From Gammaproteobacteria bacterium (GTDB lineage: Bacteria > Pseudomonadota > Gammaproteobacteria > Steroidobacterales > JBCCMA01), in assembly GCA_045107005.1 (NCBI GenBank), contig JBGCFP010000003.1:4164-68163 (forward strand): 64,000 nt of DNA, read 5' to 3'. This document shows positions 4,501 through 49,526 of the stretch, one piece after another. Every line of letters begins with the position of its first letter. Position 1 is the stretch's first letter. A program made the position numbers and the translations under genes. The notes below the pieces were generated by a model. The model worked only from the letters and a program-made list of their open reading frames with translations. It searched no databases and was not told where the DNA came from.

Positions 4501-5532
4501 CGCGCCACTGACGGCGAGGCCATTGAGTGGCTGGATCTTAGCACCGCGGACGCCTACCTCTCGGTACTTGATCCGTCAGGTCGAGAACTGTTGTTCTCGA
4601 CCTACGTTGGCGGGAGTGGCAGCGACAGATCAGAGTGGGGATTGTTCGTACAGGATTCGGCCAACATTTACCTCGCAGGATCCACGGCTGCGCCGGACTT
4701 TCCGACGGTTACGCCATTTCAGTCTGCCCGCTCGGGTAGTGATGACGCGTTCATCACGCGCTTCGCGCTTGATGATTTGACGAACCCGGGGCCAGCGGCC
4801 ATCTACGAGACCGTGCTCGATCTGACCGAGCCGGCCATTGACGGCATCACACAGGTCGTCTTCACCTGGTCGACGCTGGGCTGCGCAGAGAGTTCGGCTG
4901 AGGATCTATACGACTACGAAATGCGCCTCGTTGCCAACGGTGAGGTGATTTATGCGGATAGCGTCATTCGAGACGGCATCTTGCAGCCGTTCCGCGGATT
5001 GCAGCGCGCCAACCCGACGTGGGATTTCGATCTGGCGACGATGACTTTGCGCCAGTTCAATACCGGCATCGACACGTTGGTGGGCGTATCGGAAGCGTTC
5101 GGTACCAACTATCTGGTGTCAGACGCTGACAGTTTGCCAAGCGATGGTGTTGTGTCTATCTCACGTTTTGACGACGGTGTCTTTGTCAGCAATGCGGACG
5201 GCGAATTGGCCGCGCAGTCCACGTTGCTGGTGGCGGGGGACTGCGATGGCGACGGTGTGGACGCGTTGGAAGACAACTGCCTGAACGTGGCGAACGCCGA
5301 TCAGCGCGACACGAACGGCGACAACATTGGCAACGCCTGCGACGCGGATTTGAACGACGATTGCACCGTGAACGTGATTGATCTCGGGATTCTGCGCAAC
5401 GTGTTTTTCAGTAGCGATGCGGACGCCGATTTCAACGGTGACGGCGTGGTAAACGTTGGTGATCTTGGGATTTTGCGGTCAGGCTTTTTCGGTACCCCAG
5501 GGCCAAGTGGCATCGGCAACGCCTGTCAGTAA
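1585..5532 (+). CDS. Large secreted SBBP/FG-GAP beta-propeller repeat protein with a C-terminal TSP3 + dockerin-like module
   Basis: Signal peptide MKKALILTASLVLMAWPLGVSA. Many G-[ST]-x-S-x-DFP SBBP-type repeats. FG-GAP/VCBS-like DLNLDGFGD, DVDMDGDPD and NLNGDGSSD repeats. Conserved terminal module. Confidence 0.85.
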   Translation: MKKALILTASLVLMAWPLGVSAINDGGKAKDGLLSYFEPNLGQLSADYTHVVRADRYSALLNADRARFLIGAAAGQNAAVDGEPLESQRVTATVATAVQMRLVGANATDPGTADGLLDGHSNYLFGTDAKRWLSNVPHYSRLQFAEVYPGIDVIYTLEGSALRYDFVLAPRADANDIRLRFDGAEGVELDQRGDLVVRVGGVEMIHSAPKLFQNVDGAQQDVAGGFAVQEDGSLQFRVAEHDADTALVIDPQVTLSTYLGGSGPDRVQDIAVDASGRMVVTGSTGSLDFPIATPIGSTPSGGTDIFVARFAPDGQSLEFATYVGGTGADNPHQVAIDAAGNILLAGYTSSPDFPTMNAVQPGFLGGGLVDSDAFVAKLDPTGASLVYSTYLGGTGPVDPFFGFEWIRGLTVDAAGNAFVVGETSSFDFPATDSVGGRACLEGEAGAVSVLIGDAFVAKFSPSGALEFAACVGGSERDTGRGIDLAVDGAIHIVGFTRSSDYPVSAGAFQTTLAEPGSGLYDVHVTRLDPSGVNIDWASLVGGTDNEFAQQLRVTADSSSVVIGSSSSDDFPTSAGAYQPNRAAIAADGISDSIVFRLGAGGSTLSFGTYLGGTGQEFGWGLDLDENERIYVSSTTESLDFPLVVPTQSVRGGPLSVLGRIGPDTDDTRDMAGGQVTINGEVRRVLVAANAGQSRVYELDDRNVVQSVSDIGAPGDDTVAVVGYDSDFDLLVDAFVLINQAAPSRAYFTDGLGGLLPPVDLTLPGSTATAVATGRLVGLLEDDIVIGGNLSASVVYPGNGSGFDPGLQILPGSENTATLSLAVGDLNLDGFGDVVEGNAGRNLIYFGTGNGFLASVELGTESAESTSIAIADVDMDGDPDVVVGNDGAPNRLYRNLGDGTFAFLQDLDGNVATTQDLILTNLNGDGSSDIVTADNGVGVAYVNDGTGQFTALPLGTELAPATAIFDTGAFGVFRATDGEAIEWLDLSTADAYLSVLDPSGRELLFSTYVGGSGSDRSEWGLFVQDSANIYLAGSTAAPDFPTVTPFQSARSGSDDAFITRFALDDLTNPGPAAIYETVLDLTEPAIDGITQVVFTWSTLGCAESSAEDLYDYEMRLVANGEVIYADSVIRDGILQPFRGLQRANPTWDFDLATMTLRQFNTGIDTLVGVSEAFGTNYLVSDADSLPSDGVVSISRFDDGVFVSNADGELAAQSTLLVAGDCDGDGVDALEDNCLNVANADQRDTNGDNIGNACDADLNDDCTVNVIDLGILRNVFFSSDADADFNGDGVVNVGDLGILRSGFFGTPGPSGIGNACQ
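5239..5532 (+). repeat. TSP3 + dockerin-like Ca-binding module, copy 1 (C-terminal)
   Basis: DCDGDGVDALEDNC..GDNIGNACDADLNDDCTVNVIDLGILRNVFF..DADFNGDGVVNVGDLGILRSGFFGTPGPSGIGNACQ. Protein-level dispersed repeat shared with five other ORFs. Confidence 0.85.
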
Positions 5533-5543
5533 GTGCGCAACCG

Positions 5544-5566
5544 GGCCCGGTCGCCAAGACCGGGCC
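5544..5566 (+). terminator. Hairpin downstream of the 1585-5532 gene (possible terminator)
   Basis: GGCCCGGTC-gccaa-GACCGGGCC is a perfect 9-bp stem. No clear U-tract follows, so this is weak. Confidence 0.35.
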
Positions 5567-5685
5567 GAGACTCTTCAATGCAAACTTCGACCAATGGCCA
5601 GGGGAGCCTGGCCGCTCACTAAATCCGTTTGCGCTTGTCTGCCCGACGCTGGAAAAACAGCGTGAGTGGCAGACCGGTCAAGCCG

Positions 5686-13040: not shown

Positions 13041-13044
13041 GTAG

Positions 13045-13080: not shown

Positions 13081-15615
13081 TTAGTCGACCGTGACGCATT
13101 CGGCGGGCGGTGTCGGTCCGTCGGGCACGCAATCCGTGCGAGTGCCGTACGACCAGCCTGAACCGCCACGGCCAATGTAGACAGTGCCGAACTCCTCTTT
13201 GCTGGCATCAATGGCCCGAATCGAGTCGAGGCTGGACGCCGGGAAGGTTGCGATCCGAGAGAAATTCGCCCCGTTGTTCACCGAGCGCCAGATTCCGTAT
13301 TGGCCGGCGTTCAGGCCGGCGGCGTAGATTGTCGCGTAGTTGTTGCCCGGCGCCGGTTTGCCAAAACCGATGGCCGAGACCCTGGTCAACGTGCCCACCG
13401 TTGTCCAGGTCGCGCCGCCGTCTACGCTGCGCAGCAACGGCGCATCAATGCCGTTGAGCGGACCGGCGCTGAAAAACAAGTGGCCCGCTTCACCGGGTAC
13501 GGAGCGCAACTGCGCGTTGAAACGCGAGAACGGTGACAGCTCTCCATTAAAGCGCTGGGTCCAGGTTTGCCCGCCGTCGACAGTGCGCCACAGCCCGGCC
13601 GAGATAGCCGCATCGGTGCTGCCGCTGTGATAGTAGTAAAACGTGGCGCCCAACACGCGATCCGCGGCCAGATGTTTGCGGTCGAGGAAGTTCGCAAAGT
13701 GCGAACCGGGCGCCGCGGCAAATTCCCCGGGCAGCACAACTCGCGACCAAGTGACACCGCGATCCAGAGTGTAAAAAGGCGAGCGATTGAACGTGGGTGC
13801 CCAGACGATGTTGTCCGGGTCGTCAGCAGCCACCGCGATGCTGCCGAAACTCATACGCCAGGGATCGTTCGCGTCGGCCTGGGGCGGTGTGGGCAACGTG
13901 GCGAATTTCGTCCACGTGCGTCCACCGTCCTCGCTATAGCCCGCCTGCACCGCATCGCCGTCGGCCGAACAGCAGAAGCGATGATCGCTGGTGTTTGAGA
14001 TGACGAAGCCGCTCTGCGCCGGTGTCCATTCGAGTTGCCAGGTGCTGTTGAATCGGCGTGACGGGCCGTGAGTGAGTGGGAAAACCTCTGGGTCTTCGGA
14101 CACGCGCAAACCAAAGTCCCACCCGCCGAGTATGGGTTTTTGACCGGGCGGCACGATGACGTCGTTGGCCACCAGTTGTTCGATGCCGCGCGATTGCACG
14201 GTCCAGTCCACCGAGTTCGCACTGTCGGTCACGTCGGCGAACCAGAACCCGATGCCGTTGGTCAGCAGCAGCCGATTGGGGACCACCGGGTCAAACTGAA
14301 CGTTGGAGACGGAGAAAAAGTTGTCGCTGATCCACGTTAGCCAGGGTGATTCGCCGGGCTGAGTATTGGCACTGCGGGCCAACTCGATGAAGGTTTCGCC
14401 GCCGTCCACGCTGCGGGCGTTGTCGCCGTTGATATTGAATACATAGAGCGCGTCGGTTGTTGGATTGACCGCAACGCTGCCGTATTCGAACGGCCGTGAT
14501 GGCAGTCGATCGGTGAGCTCAGTCCATGCGCCGCTGGCGTAACGCCATACGCCGTCGAGACCGGCAATAAACAAGCTCCCGTCGCTGTCAAAGCTGCCGT
14601 CACGGGCACTGACCGGTGCGTCGCCGGCGCCGTTCGGCAGAGGACTAAACGTCTGGCCTCCGTCGACGCTGCGAAAAAAGCCGTTGCCAAATGACATGGC
14701 GTAGAGCGTTTGCGAATTCGACGGCACTCCGAAAACCAGAACGTCTGCGCTTTGAATGCCGTCGGTCAAGGCATCCTGATCGACCGGCAGCGGTAGTCCG
14801 CTCGCCGTCGACCAGTTGGCGCCACCGTCTGTGGTGCGCAGCAGGCCGTCACGCACCGTGCCGAACCACACGGTATCGGGATCGGTGGGGCTGACGCGCA
14901 GGATCGGGTTCCACTGGCGATAATCATCATTGGGCTCCATGTAAATGCCCTCCAGTGCCGTGCGTTGCCACGAGTCGCCGCGGTCGTCCGTGCGATACAC
15001 CCGTCCGGCCAGAGCCATATAGATTCGGTTCGCGTCGGACGGTGCGACGGCAATAGCTTCCACGCCGACATCGAGCACTTCTGGGACCAGGTCCGCCGCG
15101 GGCATTGAACGGGTGCTCACGATCAGCGACCAGATGCCGTTGTCGAGTCGATACGCGCCGTAAGTATCAGCGCGCACGACGCGCGTGCTACCCGTGGCAT
15201 CGGCGCTGAAGCCTGTCAACATCCCGCCGGCACCGACTTGCACGGGTCGCCACTCGAAGCGCTCGGTTTGCGCACCCGGTCCGGGTGCGGCAAAGAAGAA
15301 TTGGCGCAGGATGCCAAGATCGACCACGTTCACCACGCCGTCGCCGGTCAGATCGGCAACCGGGTCGTCGGAAAAGAAACGGCTGCGCAGGATGCCAAGA
15401 TCGACCACATTGATCGTGCCATTGTTATCCAGATCGGGGTCGCAACGGTTGCCGAAACCGTCGTTGTCCGCGTCGAGCTGAGAGGCATTGGCGAGAAATG
15501 CGCAGTTGTCGTTTTGGTCATCGAAGCCGTCGCCATCGCTGTCCGCCGCAAAGCACGAGGGCGCGCAAAAGAAACCAAGCGCCATCCACGCGGTCCACTG
15601 AGTAGCTGAAATCAT
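13081..15615 (-). CDS. Secreted Asp-box (BNR) beta-propeller protein (sialidase/GH74/sortilin-like fold) with an N-terminal TSP3 + dockerin-like module
   Basis: At least 8 Asp-box motifs: DDRGDSWQ, TDGGANWS, VDGGQTFS, VDGGETF, EDGGRTWT, LDRGVTWS, VDGGQTWT, VDGGATWT. I chose the ATG at 15615 (MISATQW..CFA signal peptide, AGGGG RBS). Confidence 0.85.
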   Translation of the reverse strand: MISATQWTAWMALGFFCAPSCFAADSDGDGFDDQNDNCAFLANASQLDADNDGFGNRCDPDLDNNGTINVVDLGILRSRFFSDDPVADLTGDGVVNVVDLGILRQFFFAAPGPGAQTERFEWRPVQVGAGGMLTGFSADATGSTRVVRADTYGAYRLDNGIWSLIVSTRSMPAADLVPEVLDVGVEAIAVAPSDANRIYMALAGRVYRTDDRGDSWQRTALEGIYMEPNDDYRQWNPILRVSPTDPDTVWFGTVRDGLLRTTDGGANWSTASGLPLPVDQDALTDGIQSADVLVFGVPSNSQTLYAMSFGNGFFRSVDGGQTFSPLPNGAGDAPVSARDGSFDSDGSLFIAGLDGVWRYASGAWTELTDRLPSRPFEYGSVAVNPTTDALYVFNINGDNARSVDGGETFIELARSANTQPGESPWLTWISDNFFSVSNVQFDPVVPNRLLLTNGIGFWFADVTDSANSVDWTVQSRGIEQLVANDVIVPPGQKPILGGWDFGLRVSEDPEVFPLTHGPSRRFNSTWQLEWTPAQSGFVISNTSDHRFCCSADGDAVQAGYSEDGGRTWTKFATLPTPPQADANDPWRMSFGSIAVAADDPDNIVWAPTFNRSPFYTLDRGVTWSRVVLPGEFAAAPGSHFANFLDRKHLAADRVLGATFYYYHSGSTDAAISAGLWRTVDGGQTWTQRFNGELSPFSRFNAQLRSVPGEAGHLFFSAGPLNGIDAPLLRSVDGGATWTTVGTLTRVSAIGFGKPAPGNNYATIYAAGLNAGQYGIWRSVNNGANFSRIATFPASSLDSIRAIDASKEEFGTVYIGRGGSGWSYGTRTDCVPDGPTPPAECVTVD
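15274..15546 (-). repeat. TSP3 + dockerin-like module, copy 2 (N-terminal, directly after the signal peptide)
   Basis: ADSDGDGFDDQNDNC..DNDGFGNRCDPDLDNNGTINVVDLGILRSRFF..ADLTGDGVVNVVDLGILRQFFFAAPGPG. Confidence 0.85.
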
Positions 15616-15854
15616 CGGAAATACCCCTTGCGACCGTGCTGGTCGCGAAAATTTGACGGATTGGGGTAGATGCACGCCACGTTGTGCGCAGTGGCCGTTT
15701 CCCGGCTCATGTCGCGGAGTCTAGAGGGCGACAGGCGCGGCAATTGTATCCATTCGTTTCCAGACGACGTGATTCGTTAGACTGTGGTTTCTACGCGAGC
15801 GTAGACTTCACGGTGACGAGAAGAGATCGAGATCATCACCCAGGAGTAATGAAG

Positions 15855-16863: not shown

Positions 16864-18861
16864 TCACTCAATCTCCACCCGAAACCGAAACTCCACCGTG
16901 CTGCCCGCTGCCATAGCGCCGCCGGGGGTGATTCGAATGGCGTCAACGGCGGCGTCGGCACCGCTCGACGGAGCGTACAGATAGGTCGAGCCACCGGTGT
17001 TGGAAAACGCCAGGTCACTCGCTACCAGCGTGAGACCGCTTGCCGGCGAATCGTCGACGAAACGCACCGACAGTCCGCCGGTCAGTGGGTCATTGATAAA
17101 GCTTGTGTTGTCCGGCAACACATCGGTAAGCGTCACCGTGCCACTGTCGATGCTCGCCGCACCGGGGTTGGTAATGGCGATGGTGTACTCGACGACGGCG
17201 CCGGGAAGCGCGTGCGCGTTGCCGGTTCCGACGATCGGATCGGAAATCACGCTTGCGGTTTTCGTGGCGACCAGGGGTTCACTGCATTCAAAGCCTGAAG
17301 ACACCCCGGGGATGTCCAGCTCGCTGATGCTGATGCGTTGGCCGCTGCTGCCGGCCGTCGCGCCATAGTTGGACGTAAACGGCGCCGGATTGCCGTCGGT
17401 CGTGCCCGGTGCGCCGCCCAGAACAGAGGTGCTCGTCGCGCTCAAAGCGGCGTTAAGGGCGGCTAAGCCACCACCGCCGCCGCCGCCGGGTCCGTGCGGT
17501 GAGCTGTTGCCATTGGTGCCGCCGTCACCGCCGCGCACGCGCACCGTGACGGACGCGCCGCTGGCGTCCGCCGCTGCCAGTAGCACAGCGCCGCCACCGC
17601 CGCCGCCGCCGCTGCCATCATTGCCGACGGTCTGATTGGCGGTCTCACCGTCAGCCAGAATTTCGCCGTTGCCCACCACGGTTGCCGCACGCACGATGAC
17701 CACTCCGCCACCGCGGGCGCCGCTGCTGGCCGGGCCACCTGCGGGTGTGCCGGTCGCGTTGTTTGTCGTGCCAGCGCCGCCGCCGCCACCGGGTACCAAA
17801 CGATCCACGCTCATGCTGGTCACGCCCGCGCCGCCGAAGCCACCGGTTTGCGCGCACACGGACGGTCCGCCCGGGCACCAGGCATAGCCCCCGACGCCAC
17901 CGTCGCCAAAACCGGCACCACCGCCACCACCGGTGTTTTGATCGTTGCTCGACGGGTTGCCATCGGTGCCACCACCGCCGGCGTTGCCCGGTGCGCCGCG
18001 GGCAAAGCTGCCGTTGGGATAGCCTTCAACCAGATTGTCGATGACGCTGCCGTTGTCGAACATCAATCGGGGGCTACCGGCAATGCCTTCGCCTTTGGCA
18101 CCGTTCGCGCCGTTGGAAAAGGGGGTTCGATAATCGGTGCTCGCGCCGCTGCCCGTGGTCGAGCTGCGTCCACCGCCACCGCGAAATCCGCTGGCGGAAA
18201 CGTCGATGCGTTGACCATTAAGATCAAGTGTGTCGGCGATGTCGAGCGCCACTACGCCACCGCTGCTGCCGTTCCAAACGGTTGCGGTCAGCGTGCCGGT
18301 CAGCGTGAGATTACTGAACTGAGGTACGCGCACCACCTGGAAACCGCGCTGTCCGCGAGTGCCAGTAGCGCTCTGCGTGCTGTAGTCGAACTGCGTTGGG
18401 GAAGCTAGCGTCAGTGTGCCGCCGCCAAGCCCAACGGCGTTCGTCGCACGGGCAAATTCGAAGCGGCCTGAGCGACGCAGATTGGTCGAGCCGCTGGCTG
18501 GGTCACCGCCTGCACCGTCGCCGTAGCTGCTGGTGTTGTCGCGATTGATGTTGGCGTCCTGCATCTGAATCACCAGAACCAGATCGCCCGCGCTGATGGT
18601 GGCGCTGGCACCGCGCGCGCTGCCAAGGGTTAGCGATGAGGTACCCGCTCCCGGGTTGGTAGTGCCGGGCCAGTAAGTATTGACGATGCCGGATAACGCG
18701 GCCGGGCCGTCGTTGCCGGGTATGCCGCACTGCTGCGCTTGGGCGACGCCACTAGTAATCAGCGCGCACGCCAGCGCGAACGCGTTGATCACGCGCGCGA
18801 GGACGCTGTGCCGCTGGCCTGATCCTTGGCCAAACGCAAGATGAATCAGCAGCTTGCACAT
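16864..18861 (-). CDS. Glycine-rich secreted/surface protein with a C-terminal DUF11-like repeat domain
   Basis: Signal-like INAFALACALITSGVAQA. Long poly-Gly-rich central region (GGGGGGG runs). C-terminal AVVEYTIAITNPG...TVTLTDVLP resembles the DUF11 conserved repeat. The start is uncertain: ATG at 18861 or GTG at 18891. Confidence 0.65.
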   Translation of the reverse strand: MCKLLIHLAFGQGSGQRHSVLARVINAFALACALITSGVAQAQQCGIPGNDGPAALSGIVNTYWPGTTNPGAGTSSLTLGSARGASATISAGDLVLVIQMQDANINRDNTSSYGDGAGGDPASGSTNLRRSGRFEFARATNAVGLGGGTLTLASPTQFDYSTQSATGTRGQRGFQVVRVPQFSNLTLTGTLTATVWNGSSGGVVALDIADTLDLNGQRIDVSASGFRGGGGRSSTTGSGASTDYRTPFSNGANGAKGEGIAGSPRLMFDNGSVIDNLVEGYPNGSFARGAPGNAGGGGTDGNPSSNDQNTGGGGGAGFGDGGVGGYAWCPGGPSVCAQTGGFGGAGVTSMSVDRLVPGGGGGAGTTNNATGTPAGGPASSGARGGGVVIVRAATVVGNGEILADGETANQTVGNDGSGGGGGGGAVLLAAADASGASVTVRVRGGDGGTNGNSSPHGPGGGGGGGLAALNAALSATSTSVLGGAPGTTDGNPAPFTSNYGATAGSSGQRISISELDIPGVSSGFECSEPLVATKTASVISDPIVGTGNAHALPGAVVEYTIAITNPGAASIDSGTVTLTDVLPDNTSFINDPLTGGLSVRFVDDSPASGLTLVASDLAFSNTGGSTYLYAPSSGADAAVDAIRITPGGAMAAGSTVEFRFRVEIE

Positions 18862-19286
18862 GACGTGAAGAATACGGAAGAAGGATTGCACGCGATGTTA
18901 AGTCAATCACAGCTCGAGCAACTCAGCGCAAAGAAGCGCGTTAATCGCGGTCAAAGTGGGTTATGACATAACGGCCTCGACGCGTGCGCATGCAACGTTC
19001 GCGCTTCCTCGCACCAGCGCTCGGCGTGGTTTAATTGCCGGGGAGTTCACGCTACCGGTCTGTCAGGACTTGAACGGTATCCAGCCCCAGACCGACTGCC
19101 ATTTTCCGTTGGGGTATCAGAAGTCGTTCTAAACCAGCTCACAACGGCATATTATGTAAGGCTATCTACCCGCCCGCCGGCTCACTGTCGGGTGGACGCC
19201 TGTCTACATTCTTTTCATGGGGACGTGCCGTGTTTTTGGATCTTGAGAAACAGTGGTCTGAGGTGTCGCAGATACCGCTGACAAAA

Positions 19287-25490: not shown

Positions 25491-26081
25491 TTATTTTTCG
25501 TTTCCCTCGAATTCATTGATGCGCGCGTCGATCAGAATCAGGTCGCGCTTGCAACGGTTCGTCATCCGCCCGCCGTAGATAATGGTCAGCAGCGCGAGCA
25601 GGCTGACACTGATCAGTAGAGTCACTCTTACCGGTTCCGAAAATCCTGCAGAAAAACCGTCGTCGACAGCCAGAAATGCAAACGCCAGGCCGAGCAAGAG
25701 GCAGATGGGCGTGCCCCAGAAGTAGTAGCGTGCGAGTTTCAGATTCATGAGCGTCCGTTTGCGCTGCAGCTTCAGAAGATCAATTGGCGCGTCGGACAGC
25801 GCATGCCACAAGCCCGCCCGCCAGCGCCAGGTCCACGCTTGTACACCGACAGCCACAACGCTAAGGCCAACGGGAAACCAGTACCGATCGCCAAAAACGC
25901 CCCACACTGTGTAAATCGCCATCATGATCAGAGCCCCGATTGTGCCAACCAACTCTACGGCGAGCAGTTGCCACATGCGTGCACGGCTTTTGCGCACACT
26001 GTTGATCAGATCGTCAACATCGGGGGCTGCCGTATCCTGCCACAGCGACTTGAGATCGAGGTCGTCGTTACTTGCGTTCAT
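25491..26081 (-). CDS. Polytopic membrane protein, putative anti-sigma partner of the upstream ECF sigma
   Basis: 4-nt overlap with the sigma gene. About 4 hydrophobic segments. No HxxxCxxC zinc anti-sigma motif, so the function is inferred from position only. Confidence 0.5.
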   Translation of the reverse strand: MNASNDDLDLKSLWQDTAAPDVDDLINSVRKSRARMWQLLAVELVGTIGALIMMAIYTVWGVFGDRYWFPVGLSVVAVGVQAWTWRWRAGLWHALSDAPIDLLKLQRKRTLMNLKLARYYFWGTPICLLLGLAFAFLAVDDGFSAGFSEPVRVTLLISVSLLALLTIIYGGRMTNRCKRDLILIDARINEFEGNEK

Positions 26082-26590: not shown

Positions 26591-26636
26591 TACCTAACAG
26601 TCGCAGGCTCGGCCGAATCATTACAGCGGGCCGGAA

Positions 26637-28076: not shown

Positions 28077-28368
28077 ACGGGCATCTCCATGCGTGCAAGA
28101 CAGGGCGCAAAGGCTACCACTAACCTCGCCGGTGCGGCAGGCCGCGTCCGTGCGCACAACCGTCGATACCATCACGCGCGCGTCTCAATGGCAGTCGGGC
28201 CCGCGTCAACGAGTCACAGCAGACTTTGGATTGGATCAAGCACGGCAGGATTGTGTTCGGTCGGTCCGTGGGGTCATACTGACAAAACAGGCACAGCCAA
28301 CAAGAACAAAACAGTCGCCGCAAGGCGTCTGCGCGCCAAAAATCGCAATAAGAAGCCAGGAGCCGGCC

Positions 28369-30270
28369 ATGAATTCCCATCGTTTTCCCATTCTGATTCA
28401 GTGTTTTTCTTTCATGCTCTTCGCGCTGTCGATGTGCCCGGCGCAAGCCGATACCGTGCCCAACGGCGGGTCCATCAGCGGATTCCTCAATGCAGTGGAT
28501 AACAGTGACTCGCATACGTTCGACGGTGTCGCCGGTCGGATCGGTCTGTTTTCCATTGGTGGTGATATTCCCGGCGGCGAGTTTTACTCAGTGTTTGATC
28601 CCACGGGCGTCCTGCTCACATCCGGATCCGGGCAACGACTGGTCACATTACCCATGACCGGAAGCTACACCGTGGTGATCCAGAGTTTTCAAACCGACCG
28701 CACCGGCAACTACCGTTTCCATTTGGCCGTAGCGCCAGGTGCCAACGAGCACGGAGTGGTCGCCAACGGCTCTTCGCTGCCCCAGTCGCTGGATGTCGAA
28801 GGGGATATCGACAGTTTTGTATTCGACGGTACAGCAGGACAGTCCGGGGTCGTCTCGATTAGTGGCGATGTGTCCGGTGGCGAGTTTTTCACCATCGTGA
28901 ATCCTGACGGAACCTCGTTGACGTCCGGTTCGTCGCAGCGCAATGTCACGCTGCCACAAAGCGGGATCTACACCGTGCTGGTGCAGAGCTTCCAGAGCAG
29001 TCGCATCGGTGACTATCGTTTTCACCTGGCGCTTGCCCTTGGCGCGAACGAGCATGGCGTTGTGCCCAATGGCTCGTCCGTCACGCAAGTCCTTGACGTC
29101 GGTGGCGACATTGACAGCTTCACGTTTGACGGCATTGCCGGCCAGGCCGGGTTGACGTCGATCAGTGGCGACGTATCGGGCGGCGAGTTTTACACCGTCT
29201 TTAATCCGGATGCGACGACGCTAACGTCGGGGTCGGCGCAGCGTTTGATCACGCTGCCGCAAACCGGCACCTACACGGTGGTCGTGCAGAGTTTCCAGAC
29301 GAGCCGCATCGGCAGCTATCGCTTTCATCTGGCGCTGGCGCCAACGGCAAGCGAGCACGGCGTGGTCCAGAACGGCGGGTCCGTCATTGAGGAGTTAGAC
29401 GTCGATGGCGACATCGACAGTTACACGTTTGACGCACAGGCCGGCCAGGGCGGCGTGGTGTCGATTAGCGGTGGCGTCTCGGGCGGGCAGTTTTACTATC
29501 TCTTTGCACCGGACAGTTCATTGGTCACCAGCGGTTCGGCACAGCGAGTGATTGCGCTGGAGCAAACGGGAACGTATACCGTGGTCGTATCGAGTTTTCA
29601 GACCAGCGGCACCGGTCCCTACGAATGGCATCTGGCGTTGGCGCCTGGCGCCAACGAGCATGGATTGATCCCGAGCAATGCCTCGGCGACACAAAACCTT
29701 GATGACGACGGTGAGATCGACAGCTTCACGCTAAACGGTTTTGCCGGCGCCGATGGAGTGCTGACGTTGACCAGCCTTAGCGGGACCGGCAAGTTCATGC
29801 GTGTCTTTGGCCCCGATGGCAGCAACCTTGGTAACAGTTCCAGCCAGGTTTCGCTTGTCGACATGGCGCCCGGTATTCACACCGTCGTTGTGCGCAGTTT
29901 CCAGACCAGCGGCACCGGCGACTACCTGCTGGACTGGTCCGTCGACTGCGCTTCGTCCGGCGACAGCGACGGCGACGGTGTACCGGACGCGTGTGACAAC
30001 TGCACCGTGGTTGCCAATGCGCTGCAGGAAGACTCTGACAATGACGGCTTTGGCAACCAGTGTGATGCCGATTTCAATCAGGATTGCGTCGTTAACGTCC
30101 AGGATCTGGGCTTCCTGCGTTCCGTCTTTTTCACCAACGATCCGGATGCCGACCTCAACAGCGATGGCGTGGTCAACATCATTGATTTGGGTGTGCTCAG
30201 AACGCTGTTTTTTATGCCACCCGGACCGTCGGCGACGGGTCAGTGTTCGAGGGCCGGACCTGTCCGGTGA
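28369..30270 (+). CDS. Secreted protein with five PPC-like (pre-peptidase C-terminal type) repeats and a C-terminal TSP3 + dockerin-like module
   Basis: AGGAG RBS and signal peptide MNSHRFPILIQCFSFMLFALSMCPAQA. Five ~101-aa repeats, each with D-x-D-S-[FY]-x-F and Y-R-F-H-L motifs. Confidence 0.85.
   Translation: MNSHRFPILIQCFSFMLFALSMCPAQADTVPNGGSISGFLNAVDNSDSHTFDGVAGRIGLFSIGGDIPGGEFYSVFDPTGVLLTSGSGQRLVTLPMTGSYTVVIQSFQTDRTGNYRFHLAVAPGANEHGVVANGSSLPQSLDVEGDIDSFVFDGTAGQSGVVSISGDVSGGEFFTIVNPDGTSLTSGSSQRNVTLPQSGIYTVLVQSFQSSRIGDYRFHLALALGANEHGVVPNGSSVTQVLDVGGDIDSFTFDGIAGQAGLTSISGDVSGGEFYTVFNPDATTLTSGSAQRLITLPQTGTYTVVVQSFQTSRIGSYRFHLALAPTASEHGVVQNGGSVIEELDVDGDIDSYTFDAQAGQGGVVSISGGVSGGQFYYLFAPDSSLVTSGSAQRVIALEQTGTYTVVVSSFQTSGTGPYEWHLALAPGANEHGLIPSNASATQNLDDDGEIDSFTLNGFAGADGVLTLTSLSGTGKFMRVFGPDGSNLGNSSSQVSLVDMAPGIHTVVVRSFQTSGTGDYLLDWSVDCASSGDSDGDGVPDACDNCTVVANALQEDSDNDGFGNQCDADFNQDCVVNVQDLGFLRSVFFTNDPDADLNSDGVVNIIDLGVLRTLFFMPPGPSATGQCSRAGPVR
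28450..29943 (+). repeat. Five tandem ~303-bp coding repeats (PPC-like beta-sandwich units)
   Basis: Units end ...APGANEHG / ...ALGANEHG / ...APTASEHG / ...APGANEHG / ...LLDWSV. Periodicity 102, 101, 101, 101 and 93 aa, counted from the translation. Confidence 0.8.
29944..30270 (+). repeat. TSP3 + dockerin-like module, copy 3 (C-terminal)
   Basis: DSDGDGVPDACDNC..DNDGFGNQCDADFNQDCVVNVQDLGFLRSVFF..DADLNSDGVVNIIDLGVLRTLFFMPPGPSATGQC. Confidence 0.85.
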
Positions 30271-32985: not shown

Positions 32986-33099
32986 CGAGGGGGCAGCCCG
33001 TGGTACCAGGAGGTCTTATTTTATCACTTGGTGAGGTTTCCGCGACTTGAGACATGGCGTCGAGCATCCGCCACGCGATTTAAACCGATTCAAAGGATT

Positions 33100-38737: not shown

Positions 38738-39031
38738 CTAGTCGCAGACGTTAGGGATGCTGCTTGGTCCGGGCGGCAGGAAAAACAGCGTTCGGAGAAT
38801 GCCCAGATCAACGATGTTTACGACGCCGTCGCCGTTGAGATCGGCTTGTGCATCAGTGCTGAAAAACAGCGTTCTGAGAATGCCCAGATCGACGATGTTA
38901 ACGATGCAGTCGTTGTTGAAATCGCCATCGCAGGCGTTACCGAAACCGTCTGCGTCGCCATCCAGTTGGTCAGCGTTGGCGACAACCGTGCAGTTGTCGG
39001 CGGTATCTGGCGCGCCGTCGCCGTCCACATC
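38738..39031 (-). repeat. TSP3 + dockerin-like module, copy 4 (C-terminal)
   Basis: DVDGDGAPDTADNC..DADGFGNACDGDFNNDCIVNIVDLGILRTLFF..QADLNGDGVVNIVDLGILRTLFFLPPGPSSIPNVCD. Confidence 0.85.
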
Positions 39032-40645
39032 GTTCCCTGCCACCAGCACACGGATGTAGTCGCCCGGACTGCTGGCGGCAAAGGTCACCGATAGCGTATC
39101 GCCCGAGAACGACGCGAAGTCACCGGACTCAAGGCCGCGCAGTTCAGGGTTCAGGTATATCGCTGTTTCGTTGCCCAGAACGTCGCTGTCGGTCAGCGGG
39201 TCGGTTGACGTCGCAAGACCGAGAATTTGCCCCGGAAACGTTACGGTGCCGACGATGTCACTGACGCCCCCGGGATCGAACGCGACGTAGTAGCTGCTGA
39301 CCAGCGTGCCGGCCGTGAGTGTCGTGGACTCTGGATCGTCAATCTCGAGGTCTGCGGCCAGCGTGACATTTTGCTGTTCCTCAAACGCGAACAGATCGTT
39401 GCGCTGGAAATTGTCATTGCCGACTCGGCCGATGGGGTCACACAGTTGCAGGAACGTGCCACCCGCGCTTGCTGCCGAGCCGCCGGTCACCGTGCCGGTG
39501 AGCGTGACGTCTTCAGGTTCGCAGACGTTGGCGTTGAGGTTTGGTGATGCGCTACCCAACAAGACCCGCACCGAGTCGCCCGGGCTGCCCGCACTAAAAT
39601 CAATGCTGAGATTGGCGCCGTCAATTTCAATGTCGTCACCGCCTTCGAGGCCGAGCAGCGATGGGTTCAGATACTGCGCGGATGCGTTGCCCAGAAATTC
39701 GCTGGCTTGAAGTTCATCGCGTTCGGTAATCACTCCGATAATCGTATCGGGAAACGTCACTGTCGCAATGATTCGATTCGACGGCACCGGGTCCCATACC
39801 ACGTAGAAGCTCGATACGAATTCGCCGGCAGCAATCACCGTTGTTTCGTCCAGCGACAGCGGTTCGGCCAACTCGACGTTCTGCTGTTCTTCGAACGTAA
39901 ACAGATCGAAAGAATCAAAGTTGTCGCTGCCAACCGGGCCAATGGGATCGCAGATTTGCCGCACCTGGCCGCCGTTGGTGAATGCGCTACCACCGGTAAC
40001 GACGCCTGTTATGGTCTGATCTGCGCTACTGCAAACGTTGACGACTGTCACCGGGTCGACGCCTGTGACTACCCGAATGGCGTCGCCAGGCGACGACGTG
40101 CGCAAGTCGTAACTGATGCTGTTGCCGCTGATCGTCACAACGTCCGGGCTCTCCAGCGACTGATCGCCAATCGCGTAGTCGGTCGCGACGTTGCCGAGCA
40201 AATCGTCGGTTTCATTGAACCGCAACGTACTGACAATGACCCCCAGCACCGGTTCGTCGAACGTGATGCTGCCAAGCGCCGTGCGCGTGTTGACCGGGTC
40301 GTAAATGACGTAGTGACTCGAAACGACCGAGCCCGCTCCAAGGACGTTGCTGGTCAAATCGGGGGAGGCAATGTCCAGGATTTGGATATCCAGCAGCGTC
40401 AGATCCTGAGTTTCATTGAACGCGCGAACGTTGTTATCGTCGAACGCGTTATTGCCAAGTACCGCAGGCGGCGCAATGATCTCAAAAGTGCCGCCTTCGT
40501 CGAACGAGCTGCCCTCGGTCAAGTCGCCCGACACGATGTCGGCCGCGACGAGCGGGCTGGTCAAAGCGGTTAGTGCCGTCGCCGTTAAGGCGAGTGCGCG
40601 ACCGCGAAAAAAAACAGGGTCTTGATTGCAGGCGAACGGATTCAC
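38738..40645 (-). CDS. Secreted protein with three ~160-175-aa repeats of an unrecognised domain and a C-terminal TSP3 + dockerin-like module
   Basis: GTG start at 40645 with GGAGG 6 nt upstream. Signal-like RALALTATALTALTSPLVAA. The triple repeat shares NxF..D.F.FEEQQNV.L ... V.S.YV..DP ... VTFP..I.G ... LGN...YLNP...GLE..D ... SPGD.IRV. Confidence 0.8.
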   Translation of the reverse strand: MNPFACNQDPVFFRGRALALTATALTALTSPLVAADIVSGDLTEGSSFDEGGTFEIIAPPAVLGNNAFDDNNVRAFNETQDLTLLDIQILDIASPDLTSNVLGAGSVVSSHYVIYDPVNTRTALGSITFDEPVLGVIVSTLRFNETDDLLGNVATDYAIGDQSLESPDVVTISGNSISYDLRTSSPGDAIRVVTGVDPVTVVNVCSSADQTITGVVTGGSAFTNGGQVRQICDPIGPVGSDNFDSFDLFTFEEQQNVELAEPLSLDETTVIAAGEFVSSFYVVWDPVPSNRIIATVTFPDTIIGVITERDELQASEFLGNASAQYLNPSLLGLEGGDDIEIDGANLSIDFSAGSPGDSVRVLLGSASPNLNANVCEPEDVTLTGTVTGGSAASAGGTFLQLCDPIGRVGNDNFQRNDLFAFEEQQNVTLAADLEIDDPESTTLTAGTLVSSYYVAFDPGGVSDIVGTVTFPGQILGLATSTDPLTDSDVLGNETAIYLNPELRGLESGDFASFSGDTLSVTFAASSPGDYIRVLVAGNDVDGDGAPDTADNCTVVANADQLDGDADGFGNACDGDFNNDCIVNIVDLGILRTLFFSTDAQADLNGDGVVNIVDLGILRTLFFLPPGPSSIPNVCD

Positions 40646-43650: not shown

Positions 43651-43941
43651 TTACGGGCAGAACGTCACGCCAGAAGGGCCTGGCGGTGCGAAAAATACCG
43701 ACCGCAACGTGCCAAGATCAATGACGTTCACGACGCCGTCGCCGTTCAGATCGGCATCAGCATCATCGCTGAAGAATACGGTTCGAAGCAGGCCCAAATC
43801 GACGACGTTAACCACGCAGTCATCGTTTAGATCCGCGTCGCAGGCGTTGCCAAATCCATCGGCGTTGCTGTCAATCTGGGCGGCGTTGTCGACCAGCGTG
43901 CAGTTGTCGATGTCGTCGGTCACGCCGTCGCCGTCACTGTC
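43651..43941 (-). repeat. TSP3 + dockerin-like module, copy 5 (C-terminal)
   Basis: DSDGDGVTDDIDNC..NADGFGNACDADLNDDCVVNVVDLGLLRTVFF..DADLNGDGVVNVIDLGTLRSVFFAPPGPSGVTFCP. Confidence 0.85.
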
Positions 43942-45207
43942 GGGCTCGTTGCCGCCCGGTCCTGGGTAAAGGTAAACGACACCTGCGCCGTTGCCCGCAG
44001 CGCCCACCGCGATGTGCTGGGCGCTGGCGGCGACATCGCCGCCCAACGCATCGTTTGGTGCGCTGTCGCTGGCGGTCAGAGACTCAATCTGGCCCCAGCT
44101 GTCGGTACCGGTTTCATTGCGCGAAAAAACGTAGCCCTGGCCGCGCAGTGAATCGTGATTGGACGCACCGGACACCAGCGTGTCGCCAACCAGAGCCAGC
44201 GAAATGCCGAAAAACGCCGTCACCATGGCGTCGTCCGCTTCCACGTTGGCGATCTCAATCCAGTCACCCGGTGTGCCGGTCGGGTTTTCGTACATGTAAG
44301 CGCGACCGCTGCCTGAGCCGACCGTGCCACCGAAATTCCAGGTGCCGACTGCAATGGTGTTGCCGTCTATCGCAATGTCCTCACCGAATTTTGCGTTGCC
44401 GCGTGGCACGCTGGCGTAGATGCGATTGGTCTGACCAAAGTTCTGCGCGCCGCCTTCGTTGCGGTTGTAAATGTAGAAAGCCCCTTCGTTGGTGAACTGG
44501 GTCTGGTCAAGCGCGTTGGCGCCAACCACGGCGGTATCGCCGTCGATCGCCACGGCAACGCCAAAGGACGCGTTGCTGTCGAATACGTCATCGACCAGGC
44601 GTTTGATTTCGCCCCAGTTGTCAGTGCCGCCGGTGTTCTTGTCGTAGAGATAGGCGAAGCCACCGGTGCTGCCCGAGCCGCCTTTTTGCGCGCCGACGAT
44701 GATGGTGTCGCCGTCGATGTCGACCGCCGTACCGTATTCGGCCAAGTTGCCAGCGCTCGAATCGGCAAACAATTTGCGCACGCTGGTCCACGAACTCGTG
44801 TCGCCCGGCGCGTGGCGAAACACGTAGGCGGCTCCTTGCGATGAATTGCCGCCAATGGGCGCGCCTTTCGCGCCAACGACTGCGGTATCGCCATCAATCG
44901 CGACCGCGATGCCAAACTGATCAAATTCGACGCCATCGTCGCTGGTGAGTTTCGCGACCTGGGTCCAACTTCCCGCACCGTCGGTTTCAAATACGTACGC
45001 GGCACCTTGTGTTTCGGCGCCGTCGATATCGGCAAACGAGGCGCCAACAATGAGCAAGTCGCCCGAGATTTCGAGCGACTCGCCAAAGCCGTCCAGTGCT
45101 TCACCGTCGTCGGCTGTAAGTTGAGTCAGTTCATTTATCGCAGCGGCGTGACAAAGTGGCAGGCAAGCGATCACGGCCAACAGACCGTTGGTCAGGCATT
45201 TGTTCAT
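43651..45207 (-). CDS. Secreted FG-GAP (integrin-alpha-like) beta-propeller protein with a C-terminal TSP3 + dockerin-like module
   Basis: Signal peptide MNKCLTNGLLAVIACLPLCHA. About 7 repeats of G.S(V/I)AIDGDT..VGA......G.AY(V/I)(F/Y). Confidence 0.85.
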   Translation of the reverse strand: MNKCLTNGLLAVIACLPLCHAAAINELTQLTADDGEALDGFGESLEISGDLLIVGASFADIDGAETQGAAYVFETDGAGSWTQVAKLTSDDGVEFDQFGIAVAIDGDTAVVGAKGAPIGGNSSQGAAYVFRHAPGDTSSWTSVRKLFADSSAGNLAEYGTAVDIDGDTIIVGAQKGGSGSTGGFAYLYDKNTGGTDNWGEIKRLVDDVFDSNASFGVAVAIDGDTAVVGANALDQTQFTNEGAFYIYNRNEGGAQNFGQTNRIYASVPRGNAKFGEDIAIDGNTIAVGTWNFGGTVGSGSGRAYMYENPTGTPGDWIEIANVEADDAMVTAFFGISLALVGDTLVSGASNHDSLRGQGYVFSRNETGTDSWGQIESLTASDSAPNDALGGDVAASAQHIAVGAAGNGAGVVYLYPGPGGNEPDSDGDGVTDDIDNCTLVDNAAQIDSNADGFGNACDADLNDDCVVNVVDLGLLRTVFFSDDADADLNGDGVVNVIDLGTLRSVFFAPPGPSGVTFCP

Positions 45208-46630: not shown

Positions 46631-46666
46631 TTGACGTATTACTGACAGATACCGCGAAGGAAAATC

Positions 46667-47572: not shown

Positions 47573-48228
47573 TGCGCGCCGCTCGCAAAGCCTACGAGGC
47601 CGTGCGTCATGAGATCATTGAAGGACGCTTTGCGCCCGGCGATCGGATCACCGAATCGGAAATTGCCAAAAGCGCCAGCGTCAGCCGCACGCCGGTTCGC
47701 GAAGCGCTGCATCGACTCGAAGCCGAGGGCTTGATTCGATTCGTACCTAACCAAGGTGCCTACGTGAGCAGTTTCGGCCTGGAGGAGGCTGAGGAGATTT
47801 TTGAACTGCGGGCCATGCTTGAAGCGTACTCCGTCCGACTCTGCGTCGACCGCGCCACGCCCGCTGAGATTGCCACGATGCGCGAACTGGCCGAAGCGCA
47901 GCTCGCCGAATCCGAAAAGAGCAAGTCGGGTTATTTGCAACGCGTCGCGGACTTGAACGGGCAGTTCCACAACGCGCTGCTTGACGCCTGTCGCAGCGAT
48001 CCGTTGCGCGCGACCTTGGGCGCCCTGACCAATGCGCCGCTGGTCTTTCAGACGTTTCGCGATTATTCGAAAAGCAATTTGGTGCGCAGCGCACAGCATC
48101 ATCTGGAAGTGGTTCAAGCCATCGAAGCGGGCAACGCGCCGTGGGCCTCCGCCGTGATGCGCGCGCATATTCTGGCCGCGCGCTCCGTGTTTCGCGACGT
48201 GCACGGCGCGCGCATGGCGGCAGAATAG
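47572..48228 (+). CDS. GntR family transcriptional regulator, FadR/FCD subfamily
   Basis: wHTH ITESEIAKSASVSRTPVREALHRLEAEGLI plus an all-helical FCD-like C-terminal domain. TGATG overlap with the lyase gene. Confidence 0.9.
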   Translation: MRAARKAYEAVRHEIIEGRFAPGDRITESEIAKSASVSRTPVREALHRLEAEGLIRFVPNQGAYVSSFGLEEAEEIFELRAMLEAYSVRLCVDRATPAEIATMRELAEAQLAESEKSKSGYLQRVADLNGQFHNALLDACRSDPLRATLGALTNAPLVFQTFRDYSKSNLVRSAQHHLEVVQAIEAGNAPWASAVMRAHILAARSVFRDVHGARMAAE

Positions 48229-48302
48229 CCCGCGCCATATCGGCTTTGAAAAATCCCCCCGGATCAGCGTTAAATAGAGATCTATTGACGAGGGGGAAGA
48301 AC

Positions 48303-49526
48303 ATGCAACGAATGGGATTGAAAATCGGGCTGGCCGTGGTGGCGAGCGGGTTGTTTGGTAGCGCAGCGTATGCGGTAGACAGCGACGGAGACGGCGTCGA
48401 TGACAGCGTCGATAACTGCTCGCAGCAGGCAAATGCTGACCAGCGCGATTCCAACGGCGACGGCTTTGGCAACGTTTGCGACACCGACTTGAACAACGAT
48501 CTGATCGTCAACGTCGTTGACCTCGGGATTTTTCGGTCCGTGTTTTTCTCGGGCGACGCCGATGCGGATGCGAACGGCGACGGCACGGTCAACGTTGTGG
48601 ATCTGGGCGTACTGCGCAGCCAGTTTTTCTCGGCGCCTGGTCCGGGTGCTGTACCCCCCGCCGGCTTTGGCCAGCGACCGGCGTCGGTGGATTTCGATTT
48701 TGACAACAACGGCTTGGTCGATGCGCAATCGGTTATCACTTACGATGATGATGGCAACGTAACGTCGCAGACCTACACGATCACCGGCGACGGCACACCG
48801 GACTTGTTCAACCCTGTATCCGATGCGAATTTCCAGGCCGATTACACTTGGGAAGACGGCCTGTTGACGCTGGTTGAACAAGACAACATTACCGATGGCA
48901 ACGATTTCGTTTCGGCCATCAGCTATGTCGACGGTGTGATGACCTCAACCGTAGAAAGCGTGTTTGACGCGATGGGCGGTTTGGTGGCGCAAGTCAACAT
49001 TGACTATGACTACCTGGACGATCTGCGAGTACGAGACACCTGGACGTTCGGGCCCGATAATTTGCCACTGCTGATTATTGATCACGTCTACGATGGCAAT
49101 GGATTGATCGCGACGTCATCGTGGGTGAATCAGCTGACACCGGGTGGTCAGGAGTTTGATTTCACTTGGAACACGGATGGCAAACTCACGCAGCGTCGCA
49201 CCGACGCGGATGCCGATGGCGTGTTTGAAGAAGTGATCGATATCGAGCACGCTGGTGGCGTGTCGACCATGCGTACGGTTACGGGCTCTCTGAGCTTCAC
49301 GCCCGCGGACTACACGGAGACACCTGCTTATGACACGGATGGGCGCATTCTGCGCATTGACTATGACGCCAACATCGACGGATCGATTGATGCGGTCGGG
49401 ACACCGGTGTGGGAAGAAGGGCCGTGTCAGCCGTTTTTTCTGCCTACGCTTAATCCCACCAACGAGTCGGGTTTTGACGGGGATCCCGATTCCGGTGTCG
49501 GTGACGTTCTGTTCTGCGGGCCGTAA
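48303..49526 (+). CDS. Secreted protein with an N-terminal TSP3 + dockerin-like module and an Asp/Thr/Gly-rich YD-like C-terminal region
   Basis: GAGGGGGA RBS. Signal peptide MQRMGLKIGLAVVASGLFGSAAYA. Module directly after the signal peptide. The remainder has no motif I recognise. Confidence 0.8.
   Translation: MQRMGLKIGLAVVASGLFGSAAYAVDSDGDGVDDSVDNCSQQANADQRDSNGDGFGNVCDTDLNNDLIVNVVDLGIFRSVFFSGDADADANGDGTVNVVDLGVLRSQFFSAPGPGAVPPAGFGQRPASVDFDFDNNGLVDAQSVITYDDDGNVTSQTYTITGDGTPDLFNPVSDANFQADYTWEDGLLTLVEQDNITDGNDFVSAISYVDGVMTSTVESVFDAMGGLVAQVNIDYDYLDDLRVRDTWTFGPDNLPLLIIDHVYDGNGLIATSSWVNQLTPGGQEFDFTWNTDGKLTQRRTDADADGVFEEVIDIEHAGGVSTMRTVTGSLSFTPADYTETPAYDTDGRILRIDYDANIDGSIDAVGTPVWEEGPCQPFFLPTLNPTNESGFDGDPDSGVGDVLFCGP
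48375..48647 (+). repeat. TSP3 + dockerin-like module, copy 6 (N-terminal)
   Basis: VDSDGDGVDDSVDNC..NGDGFGNVCDTDLNNDLIVNVVDLGIFRSVFF..DADANGDGTVNVVDLGVLRSQFFSAPGPG. Confidence 0.85.

Follow-up and report, generated by a model that had tools for sequence, protein, structure and literature searches.

A 64-kb stretch of gammaproteobacterial DNA (contig JBGCFP010000003.1), referred to below as the window, contains six genes whose products, here called proteins A to F, share a 90-residue module. The coordinates of the open reading frames (ORFs), the module alignment, and the motif and hidden Markov model (HMM) scans all refer to this window. A first-pass annotation had picked out six signal-peptide ORFs with one module apiece, and all six were found again at the same coordinates (Table 1). 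Each ORF contained exactly one copy, and the six copies aligned without gaps over 90 residues, a core shorter than the ~91 to 108 residues first proposed. No seventh copy was detected in the window by a six-frame motif scan or by an HMM search of all window ORFs. Read by eye, each of the six N-termini starts with an n-region that is basic or polar, continues into a hydrophobic core, and has a cleavage site of the AxA type. The module terminates in PGPS; it is C-terminal in proteins A, C, D, and E, with 4 to 12 residues beyond PGPS, and N-terminal in proteins B and F, where it starts about 1 to 2 residues past the predicted cleavage site (around residue +2 of the mature protein). The start of protein B is uncertain: the ATG at 15615 gives a signal peptide without a basic residue, and an in-frame upstream GTG at 15675 (ORF 13081-15675, minus strand) is an alternative start that adds an n-region with K and R.

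The module genes are dispersed on both strands amid housekeeping genes and do not form an operon. BLASTP of the six passengers with the module masked gave no match among them at 1e-10, and the passengers fell into different Pfam families or none, in agreement with the earlier reading of them as unrelated.

Table 1. Positions of the six module-bearing proteins and of their module copies in the window
Feature	Position	Strand	Description
Protein A	1585..5532	+	1315 aa; signal peptide MKKALILTASLVLMAWPLGVSA (by eye); DUF7948 + SBBP + FG-GAP_3 passenger; module C-terminal
Module copy A	5239..5508	+	aa 1219-1308; Cys42 and tail Cys (GIGNACQ)
Protein B	13081..15615	-	844 aa; signal peptide, then module at mature N-terminus, then BNR/Sortilin-Vps10 double-propeller; P0309 is the identical protein
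Module copy B	15274..15543	-	aa 25-114; without Cys42, without tail Cys
Protein C	28369..30270	+	633 aa; signal peptide; repeated PPC-like domains; module C-terminal
Module copy C	29962..30231	+	aa 532-621
Protein D	38738..40645	-	635 aa; signal peptide; three ~165-aa all-beta repeats; module C-terminal
Module copy D	38762..39031	-	aa 539-628; copy used for the structure model
Protein E	43651..45207	-	518 aa; signal peptide; seven FG-GAP_2 repeats forming a propeller; module C-terminal
Module copy E	43672..43941	-	aa 423-512
Protein F	48303..49526	+	407 aa; signal peptide, then module at mature N-terminus, then YD/RHS-like passenger (weak RHS-repeat match only, Pfam)
Module copy F	48378..48647	+	aa 26-115; without Cys42, without tail Cys

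Across the six copies, 42 of the 90 module columns were invariant. Pairwise identity was 60 to 73% for protein (mean 0.67) and 61 to 73% for DNA (mean 0.66), and identity at third codon positions was just 39 to 58%. The low third-position identity suggests that the copies are old paralogs under purifying selection and not products of a recent duplication, as had been proposed on the basis of about two-thirds identity; the accompanying claim that DNA identity is lower than protein identity did not hold, since the two means are about equal. A profile made from the six sequences retrieved relatives at E = 1e-39 among 5.8 billion proteins, which rules out chance as the source of the module similarity.

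Composition and predicted fold of the module

Columns 1 to 36 comprise one thrombospondin type-3 (TSP3) repeat with two Asp-rich calcium loops and an invariant Cys14-Cys34 pair, and columns 37 to 84 comprise a compact dockerin, in which two 12-residue EF-hand loops (D-x-N-x-D-x-x-x-N-x-x-D; D37-D48 and D64-D75) are each followed by a helix (DLGILRxxFF). Both loops have D, N, D, N, and D at loop positions 1, 3, 5, 9, and 12. All six copies share the residues at positions 1, 9, and 12 of either loop and at position 5 of the second loop; positions 3 and 5 are otherwise nearly invariant. The TSP3 repeat leads straight into the first dockerin loop (GNxCD-x-D-L-N-N-D), suggesting a seamless fusion rather than two domains joined by a linker.

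The isolated modules were compared with Pfam models. Four of the six passed the TSP_3 cutoff of 25 bits (29.5 to 36.2 bits), with copies A and E at ~20 bits. Five of the six matched Dockerin_1 (PF00404) at 16.7 to 21.2 bits versus a cutoff of 22.9, and copy F gave no match to this family. Against dockerin_GC of NCBIfam (NF041540), proteins C, D, and F scored 15.4 to 19.3 bits versus a cutoff of 29 and the other three gave no match; matches to the NCBIfam MtsC model were partial and below its cutoff (39 to 48 bits). The linker between the two dockerin segments is ~7 residues shorter than in the Pfam model, which explains the subthreshold Dockerin_1 scores. Dockerin_1 was matched at E < 1e-3 in 22 of 72 relatives, with the best match at 1.7e-9.

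Profile comparison, in turn, recovered both halves. Columns 1 to 37/49 of the six-copy profile matched the type-3 repeats of COMP and thrombospondin-1 and -2 (E = 9e-35 to 5e-16), and columns 36 to 83 matched the solved cellulosomal dockerins 2Y3N_B, 1DAQ, 2MTE, 4FL4, 1OHZ_B, and 2CCL_B; with the dockerin half alone, the E values against solved dockerins were 2e-7 to 1e-5. These alignments set the register, which was checked against 1DAQ, 1OHZ, and 4FL4. In this register V46-V47 align with the Ser-Thr pair of Clostridium thermocellum (dockerin positions 10 and 11), and R53-S54 align with its Lys-Arg pair (positions 17 and 18).

Structure prediction with AlphaFold2 was performed on copy D and, based on 121 sequences, produced a model with a predicted local distance difference test (pLDDT) score of 96 and a predicted template modeling score of 0.84, with helices at columns 46 to 54 and 73 to 82. 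When this predicted structure was compared with the PDB by Foldseek, ranks 1 to 25 were all dockerins or thrombospondin type-3 repeats, and the best match was 2Y3N_B (template modeling score 0.79, root mean square deviation 1.2 Å, 41% identity). At the level of sequence profile and predicted fold, the TSP3 plus dockerin-like composition proposed in the first-pass annotation holds, and the unit is almost certainly a homolog of TSP3 repeats and dockerins, even with the window copies under the Dockerin_1 cutoff.

Cys14 and Cys34 were present in all of the 108 modules that were aligned for the comparison of genomes described below. Cys42 and a tail Cys, located up to 15 residues past PGPS, were both present in 50 modules and both absent from 55; three modules contained the tail Cys only, and none contained Cys42 only (Fisher p = 1e-27). 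This pairing was independent of N- or C-terminal placement of the module. The covariation indicates that Cys42 and the tail Cys constitute a putative second, optional disulfide clasping the end of the module in about half of the copies. Together with the conservation of Cys14 and Cys34, it fits folding outside the cytoplasm. Neither a membrane helix nor a cleavage motif was found in the module, and the 0 to 17 residues after PGPS contain no hydrophobic helix.

Genome-specific residues on the dockerin helices

A search of species-representative genomes detected at least 414 confirmed module stretches. The best 80 of these, picked for similarity to the window copies, provided 80 loci (722 kb) in ~18 metagenome-assembled genomes (MAGs), nearly all of them from uncultured Gammaproteobacteria, with a best module identity to the window copies of 72 to 76%. 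The module is greatly expanded in a few uncultured gammaproteobacterial MAGs. A word-indexed search returned 768 proteins at E <= 1e-5, and the named matches were annotated only as "thrombospondin type 3 repeat-containing" or "dockerin type I domain-containing" proteins from MAGs of Gammaproteobacteria or Pseudomonadota. An exhaustive profile search returned 42,641 clusters at E <= 1e-3, mainly multi-TSP3 proteins, and 2,107 clusters at E <= 1e-30.

In the 80 loci, a near-full module was found in 109 ORFs, 108 of which contained a single copy. Among the 78 complete ORFs the module was C-terminal in 60, ending 0 to 17 residues before the stop, N-terminal in 11, internal in 6, and stand-alone in 1. 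Two or three module genes occurred in 24 loci, and the density beyond the seed gene was one module per 27 kb, versus one per 11 kb in the window. The passengers of 72 complete proteins spanned 56 Pfam families, which included FG-GAP and lactonase propellers, PA domains, subtilases, endo/exonuclease-phosphatases, GH16, glucose/sorbosone dehydrogenase, RoxA-like and MauG-type cytochromes, DUF1800, PKD, and fn3. GH16 was found in only two of the 72 relatives, beside proteases, nucleases, and redox proteins. The first-pass view of the cargo as binding-type proteins is too narrow for these relatives, whose passengers also include subtilases, nucleases/phosphatases, GH16, dehydrogenases, and cytochrome c proteins. 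One protein, P0131 (407 aa; locus L081, 1102-2325), consists of a signal peptide and four tandem TSP3-dockerin modules and nothing else, and its gene lies directly downstream of the gene for a 305-aa TSP3/dockerin protein.

The 108 modules were grouped by genome, and the share of per-column entropy explained by genome identity was calculated with correction by label shuffling; only ten genomes had five or more modules, and the statistic is not phylogeny-aware. At most of the 58 variable columns, and at every variable column in the TSP3 half, genome identity explained ~0 of the entropy. Paralogs of one genome are thus as different from each other there as modules of separate genomes, which excludes recent expansion or gene conversion as the explanation. 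Gene conversion was also considered as the cause of the genome-specific columns themselves and was rejected, as there was no homogenization at other variable columns or at third codon positions.

The signal was concentrated in the dockerin half. Genome identity explained 0.49 and 0.42 of the entropy at columns 46 and 73 (dockerin position 10), 0.37 and 0.27 at columns 50 and 77 (position 14), 0.56 and 0.49 at columns 53 and 80 (position 17), and 0.38 and 0.29 at columns 57 and 84 (position 21), with z = 8 to 20 for these eight columns. Weaker signals were detected at columns 47/74, 54/81, and 52. Positions 10, 14, 17, and 21 have a spacing of i, i+4, i+7, and i+11, forming one stripe per helix that is separate from the conserved hydrophobic stripe (positions 8, 13, 16, and 20). 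In dockerins, cohesin specificity is accepted to depend on positions 10 and 11 of each segment (PMC8063739). Ranks 1 to 4 for genome specificity were occupied by columns 53, 80, 46, and 73. Positions 17, 18, and 22 are also cited for recognition in the cellulosome literature, and the set of positions 10, 11, 17, 18, and 22 in both segments, which had been preset, was enriched for genome specificity (Mann-Whitney p = 4.8e-5); the overlap of the code columns with this set is limited to columns 46, 47, 53, 54, 73, 74, 80, and 81. As in dockerins, the recognition positions 10/11 and 17/18 were conserved within a genome and differed between genomes.

At least five code types were distinguished among the genomes: V/R (the window, JBGCEL, and CAYGSQ), F/R (CAZXCL and JBCCMA), F/K (JBCAXP and CBDUQI), F/E (JAHEKH), and F/small with Leu at position 21 (JBGCFV and CAWUKD). 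The two segments agreed closely, with an identical residue at columns 46 and 73 in 83% of the modules (expected 41%) and at columns 53 and 80 in 86% (expected 43%), which is the signature of a dual binding mode. Minority residues occurred in two genomes, Ala at column 46 in 6 of 23 modules of JBGCEL (SGMAG-48) and Arg at columns 53 and 80 in 2 of 9 modules of JBCAXP. By analogy with type I and type II cellulosomal dockerins, they could mark two docking classes per genome.

Pairwise comparison of modules separated the effect of genome from that of descent. Same-genome paralogs were identical at 63% of the code columns, 80% of the four core columns, and 38% of the other variable columns; cross-genome orthologs (passengers at least 40% identical) were identical at 35, 41, and 46%, and cross-genome non-orthologs at 37, 38 (0.375), and 37% (0.365), respectively. 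Modules were therefore like their genome-mates at the code columns and like their orthologs at the other columns. For example, the passenger of protein D is 69% identical over 521 residues to that of its CAZXCL ortholog in locus L031, and dockerin positions 10 and 11 switch from IV to FS in both segments. The within-genome agreement at the code columns is most simply read as all modules following a single partner that their genome encodes.

Alternatively, the module could be a generic calcium-stabilized cap or linker without a specific interactor, and the code columns could reflect helix packing or a sampling artifact. Bacterial secreted proteins commonly contain TSP3 and EF-hand motifs, as the 42,641 clusters found above illustrate, and to our knowledge most non-cellulosomal dockerins have no known partner or role. 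However, the hydrophobic stripe is different from the genome-specific stripe, which includes a charged residue, and paralogs match their genome-mates at the code columns only and their orthologs elsewhere. In addition, the module is terminal rather than placed between domains, and it is replaced by a membrane anchor in orthologs (see below). We consider a generic cap highly unlikely.

Strain-variable surface glycans could also drive a genome-specific code. The module would then bind a genome-specific glycan, such as lipopolysaccharide O-antigen, capsule, or exopolysaccharide, through calcium bridges and be retained at the surface or in the matrix without a protein partner. The four predicted acidic calcium sites of the module are compatible with such binding, no cohesin or other protein partner turned up in the window or the related loci, and the anchor swap described below requires envelope retention only. 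The variable columns, however, are those of the canonical protein-contact face of the dockerin helices and not those of the calcium loops. The exchange of R, K, and E at position 17, mirrored in both helices, resembles salt-bridge tuning at a protein interface, the TSP3 half is the most acidic part of the module and is without genome signal, and we know of no dockerin that binds a glycan. Glycan binding is thus an unlikely explanation. Among the partners suggested by the first-pass annotation, a polysaccharide now looks less likely than a protein.

A third possibility is that the modules bind each other, making a calcium-dependent extracellular network with tandem-module proteins as cross-linkers and no separate receptor. 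The module has two equivalent faces, a self-complementary interface would force the paralogs of a genome to change together, and self-binding would account for the lack of a cohesin. The four-module protein P0131 fits either binding between modules or a role as a multivalent connector. Solved dockerins, however, are known to bind cohesins and not each other. Moreover, position 17 is uniformly R, K, or E in each genome with no obvious opposite charge covarying inside the module, and the single module in 108 of 109 proteins offers little valency for a network. We regard self-binding as quite unlikely.

Anchor swap and the proposed docking role

The passenger of protein D (aa 36-538) contains three ~165-aa all-beta repeats, each ending in SPGD-x-(I/V)RV, and repeats 2 and 3 contain two conserved Cys each. 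No family match for these repeats was found in Pfam, NCBIfam, or the PDB, and because members of the family carry either the module or an IPTL-CTERM-like signal, the repeat looks like an undescribed surface-protein domain. The passenger family comprises 38 proteins, 20 of which end in the module directly after SPGDY(I/V)RV. In nine members, from MAGs of Myxococcota and other Pseudomonadota and 47 to 67% identical to D, the sequence beyond this junction is instead VPxxGP, followed by a hydrophobic helix and a terminal tail rich in Arg. One of the nine passes the IPTL_CTERM model of NCBIfam (21.1 bits versus 20.5), another scores 15.3 bits, and one member of the family is annotated as a MYXO-CTERM protein by its source. 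Tripartite C-terminal signals of this kind, collected as sorting-signal families in TIGRFAMs/NCBIfam, are membrane or surface sorting anchors. The presence of an IPTL-CTERM-like signal in the place of the module suggests, by "choice-of-anchor" logic, that the module does an equivalent job, namely envelope retention. Distant relatives of the D repeat, P0305 to P0308 (~311 aa), end in a single EF-hand/dockerin-like segment (DSDNDNDVDLxDLAxLAxxWL) in place of the full module.

The interchange with a C-terminal sorting signal raises the possibility that the module is itself an export or sorting signal, read in transit by a secretion or sorting machine (for example type II secretion or a novel sortase-like system), and not a permanent tether. 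The module is common to many exported proteins, one copy in each and mostly terminal, and coevolution with the machine of the same genome would also yield a code. Its occurrence at the N-terminus, the C-terminus, or internally, however, is unusual for processed signals; it is predicted to be a stable, disulfide-bonded calcium domain without a cleavage motif or a membrane helix, and two redundant symmetric faces are typical of docking. A sorting signal is therefore quite unlikely.

On balance, we think it probable that the module is a composite unit that docks its carriers, in a calcium-dependent manner, to a partner they share at the cell envelope. Two indirect lines, the genome-specific residue code and the anchor swap at the D junction, lend support to the shared address tag for a common partner that was proposed in the first-pass annotation. 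We infer that the module binds calcium and forms disulfides, that its carriers are located at the surface, and that a partner exists and is a protein. In this model, module proteins would be exported by Sec. Outside the cytoplasm, the module would fold around calcium and its disulfides would form. One face, the same on both helices (positions 10, 14, 17, and 21), would then bind a partner that the genome itself encodes; either helix could serve, much like the dual binding mode described for cellulosomal dockerins. Each genome would thereby tether dozens of its enzymes and binding proteins, unrelated to one another, to one common structure, most likely at the cell surface.

Several observations weigh against this model. 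The window copies score below the curated cutoffs of Pfam Dockerin_1 and NCBIfam dockerin_GC. The code was derived from only ten genomes with at least five modules, in loci picked by similarity to the window copies, and 10 of the 12 code columns in the pair comparison were picked from the same data. The swap is weak for N-terminal modules: among module-less homologs of protein B, a few have signal anchors, most have plain leaders, and only 8 of 82 contain a lipobox. Further, no cohesin was found by Pfam among the ~45 window ORFs of at least 150 aa, which matched only housekeeping and hydrolase families. A cohesin HMM, built from three C. thermocellum CipA cohesins whose sequence was verified against 2CCL_A, 1OHZ_A, and 1ANU, gave no match below E = 1.9 across the 6,353 six-frame segments that cover the window and the 80 loci (~785 kb), a negative that is weak because the model is narrow. 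Clustering of 468 non-module ORFs from 81 loci showed no family that recurs beside module genes, and the beta-repeats of protein D matched no cohesin fold by Foldseek.

Both the Pfam and the HMM searches of the window thus came up empty, in line with the first-pass remark that no cohesin-like candidate was seen there. The commonest neighbor family in the clustering, by its look an ammonium-transporter-type membrane protein, was present at 8 loci. Around the P0131 and P0039 loci no cohesin was found, and these regions contained more module genes and a weak PEP-CTERM protein. Two further candidates were tried and rejected. Protein D as an adaptor scaffoldin was dropped because its AlphaFold2 model (pLDDT 85) had no significant PDB match beyond its own dockerin, and a lipoprotein anchor replacing the N-terminal module in B homologs was dropped because the lipobox count given above is too weak for use.

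The docking module could have as its partner a divergent cohesin from another part of the genome, a receptor that is not a cohesin, a glycan, or another copy of the module. A more specific version of the docking model, which we put forward only tentatively and hold to be doubtful, is a cohesin-independent system in uncultured sediment and marine Gammaproteobacteria, in which dozens of Sec-exported proteins would plug into a non-cohesin outer-membrane receptor or scaffold through a lineage-specific code. Such a system would be a Gram-negative "exoproteome display" organelle, an analog of the cellulosome for general nutrient scavenging.

The genes between the module genes of the window include cysHIJ and genes for S9 peptidases, photolyases, an ECF sigma factor, a TonB-dependent receptor, hydantoinase, and CoA transferases. 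Some of them make up a light-response neighborhood at 25491-28175 (minus strand) and 32956-34638 (plus strand), with module gene C in between: a DNA photolyase gene (26637-28175), an ECF sigma factor gene (26078-26590), a gene for a likely membrane anti-sigma factor (25491-26081), and, at 32956-34638 (plus strand), a gene for a photolyase-related DPRP protein. A 675-aa ORF at 16864-18891 (minus strand) encodes a signal peptide and a long Gly-rich stretch with GGGGxG runs, which may form a beta-helix, and contains no module; its C-terminus resembles a DUF11-like domain at 19 bits, below the cutoff, and the ORF has no family assignment. A 177-aa ORF (49623-50156, minus strand), which lies immediately downstream of module gene F and runs in the opposite direction, consists almost entirely of Gly/Ala/Val/Asp low-complexity repeats (GVGG, AIGDA), has no family match, and may not be a real gene.

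Relation to known systems

Our literature search turned up no account of the fused module or its expansion, nor of a recognition code beyond cellulosomes. The module bears on the long-standing question of how Gram-negative heterotrophs of marine and sediment habitats retain their exoenzymes at the cell rather than lose them by diffusion. It offers a large and clean test case, since a single 90-aa unit is found on dozens of cargo proteins in each genome. The code provides a handle on the partner, whose family should show compensating changes by the same genome grouping, and it permits specificity-swap tests. If the docking model is true, the system could provide orthogonal docking pairs that are small and switchable by calcium, for use in protein assembly under oxidizing conditions.

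The TSP3 half resembles the type-3 repeats of thrombospondin and COMP (PF02412; 1UX6, 1YO8, and 3FBY) and of Myxococcus xanthus MtsC/MtsD in its DxDxDGxxDxxDNC...NxDQxDxDxDGxGNxCD motif and its Cys pair, and it scores ~30 bits per repeat against COMP. In contrast to those arrays, the module contains a single repeat, which is without genome-specific signal. The repeat appears to extend the dockerin N-terminally in a fixed manner, perhaps in the way that the X-module does in type II dockerins.

Like the PEP-CTERM, IPTL-CTERM (TIGR04174), and MYXO-CTERM signals, the module marks many exported proteins per genome, and on orthologous passengers it takes the position of an IPTL-CTERM-like signal. 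It differs from these tripartite signals in being a folded 90-aa calcium domain that has no membrane helix or basic tail, is not confined to the C-terminus, and bears no sign of processing. The GC-type dockerin of NCBIfam (NF041540) is likewise a dockerin variant seen as an anchoring domain outside cellulosomes; the window modules, at 15 to 19 bits versus the cutoff of 29, are not members of that family.

Two non-cellulosomal cohesin-dockerin systems have been hypothesized in Gram-negative bacteria, the "planctosome" of freshwater Planctomycetes (PMC6461901) and the dockerin-like and cohesin-like ORFs of Saccharophagus degradans (PMC2386152). They share with the present family Gram-negative dockerin modules on peptidases and other non-cellulolytic proteins, TSP3 repeats in the same proteins, and proposed surface complexes. 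However, those proposals rest on cohesins in the same genomes, the present family is far larger per genome, and neither a recognition-residue code nor an anchor swap is reported for them.

The closest comparison is with cellulosomal dockerins (PF00404; CelS, Xyn10B, and Pseudobacteroides cellulosolvens Cel48; 1DAQ, 1OHZ, and 2Y3N). The module differs from them in its Gram-negative hosts, its ~7-residue shorter linker, its upstream TSP3 repeat at fixed spacing, its one or two predicted disulfides, its additional N-terminal placement, and a cargo that is mostly not carbohydrate-active enzymes. Unlike the cellulosome, which combines a scaffoldin of repeated cohesins with carbohydrate-active cargo for plant cell-wall degradation, the module proteins were accompanied by no cohesin in the window and 80 loci, and their cargo in the window consists of propellers, PPC domains, and unassigned repeats. 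The module also has likenesses to cellulosomal dockerins. Both are built from a duplicated 22-residue segment of EF-hand loop and helix with the same predicted fold, and both occur singly in each protein, most often at the C-terminus, with many unrelated secreted proteins as carriers. The hydrophobic residues at module positions 10 and 11 recall the Met-Ala pair of the Bacteroides cellulosolvens Cel48 dockerin. In both, finally, the two segments are near-identical at the recognition positions, and the residues at these positions are constant within a genome and differ between genomes.

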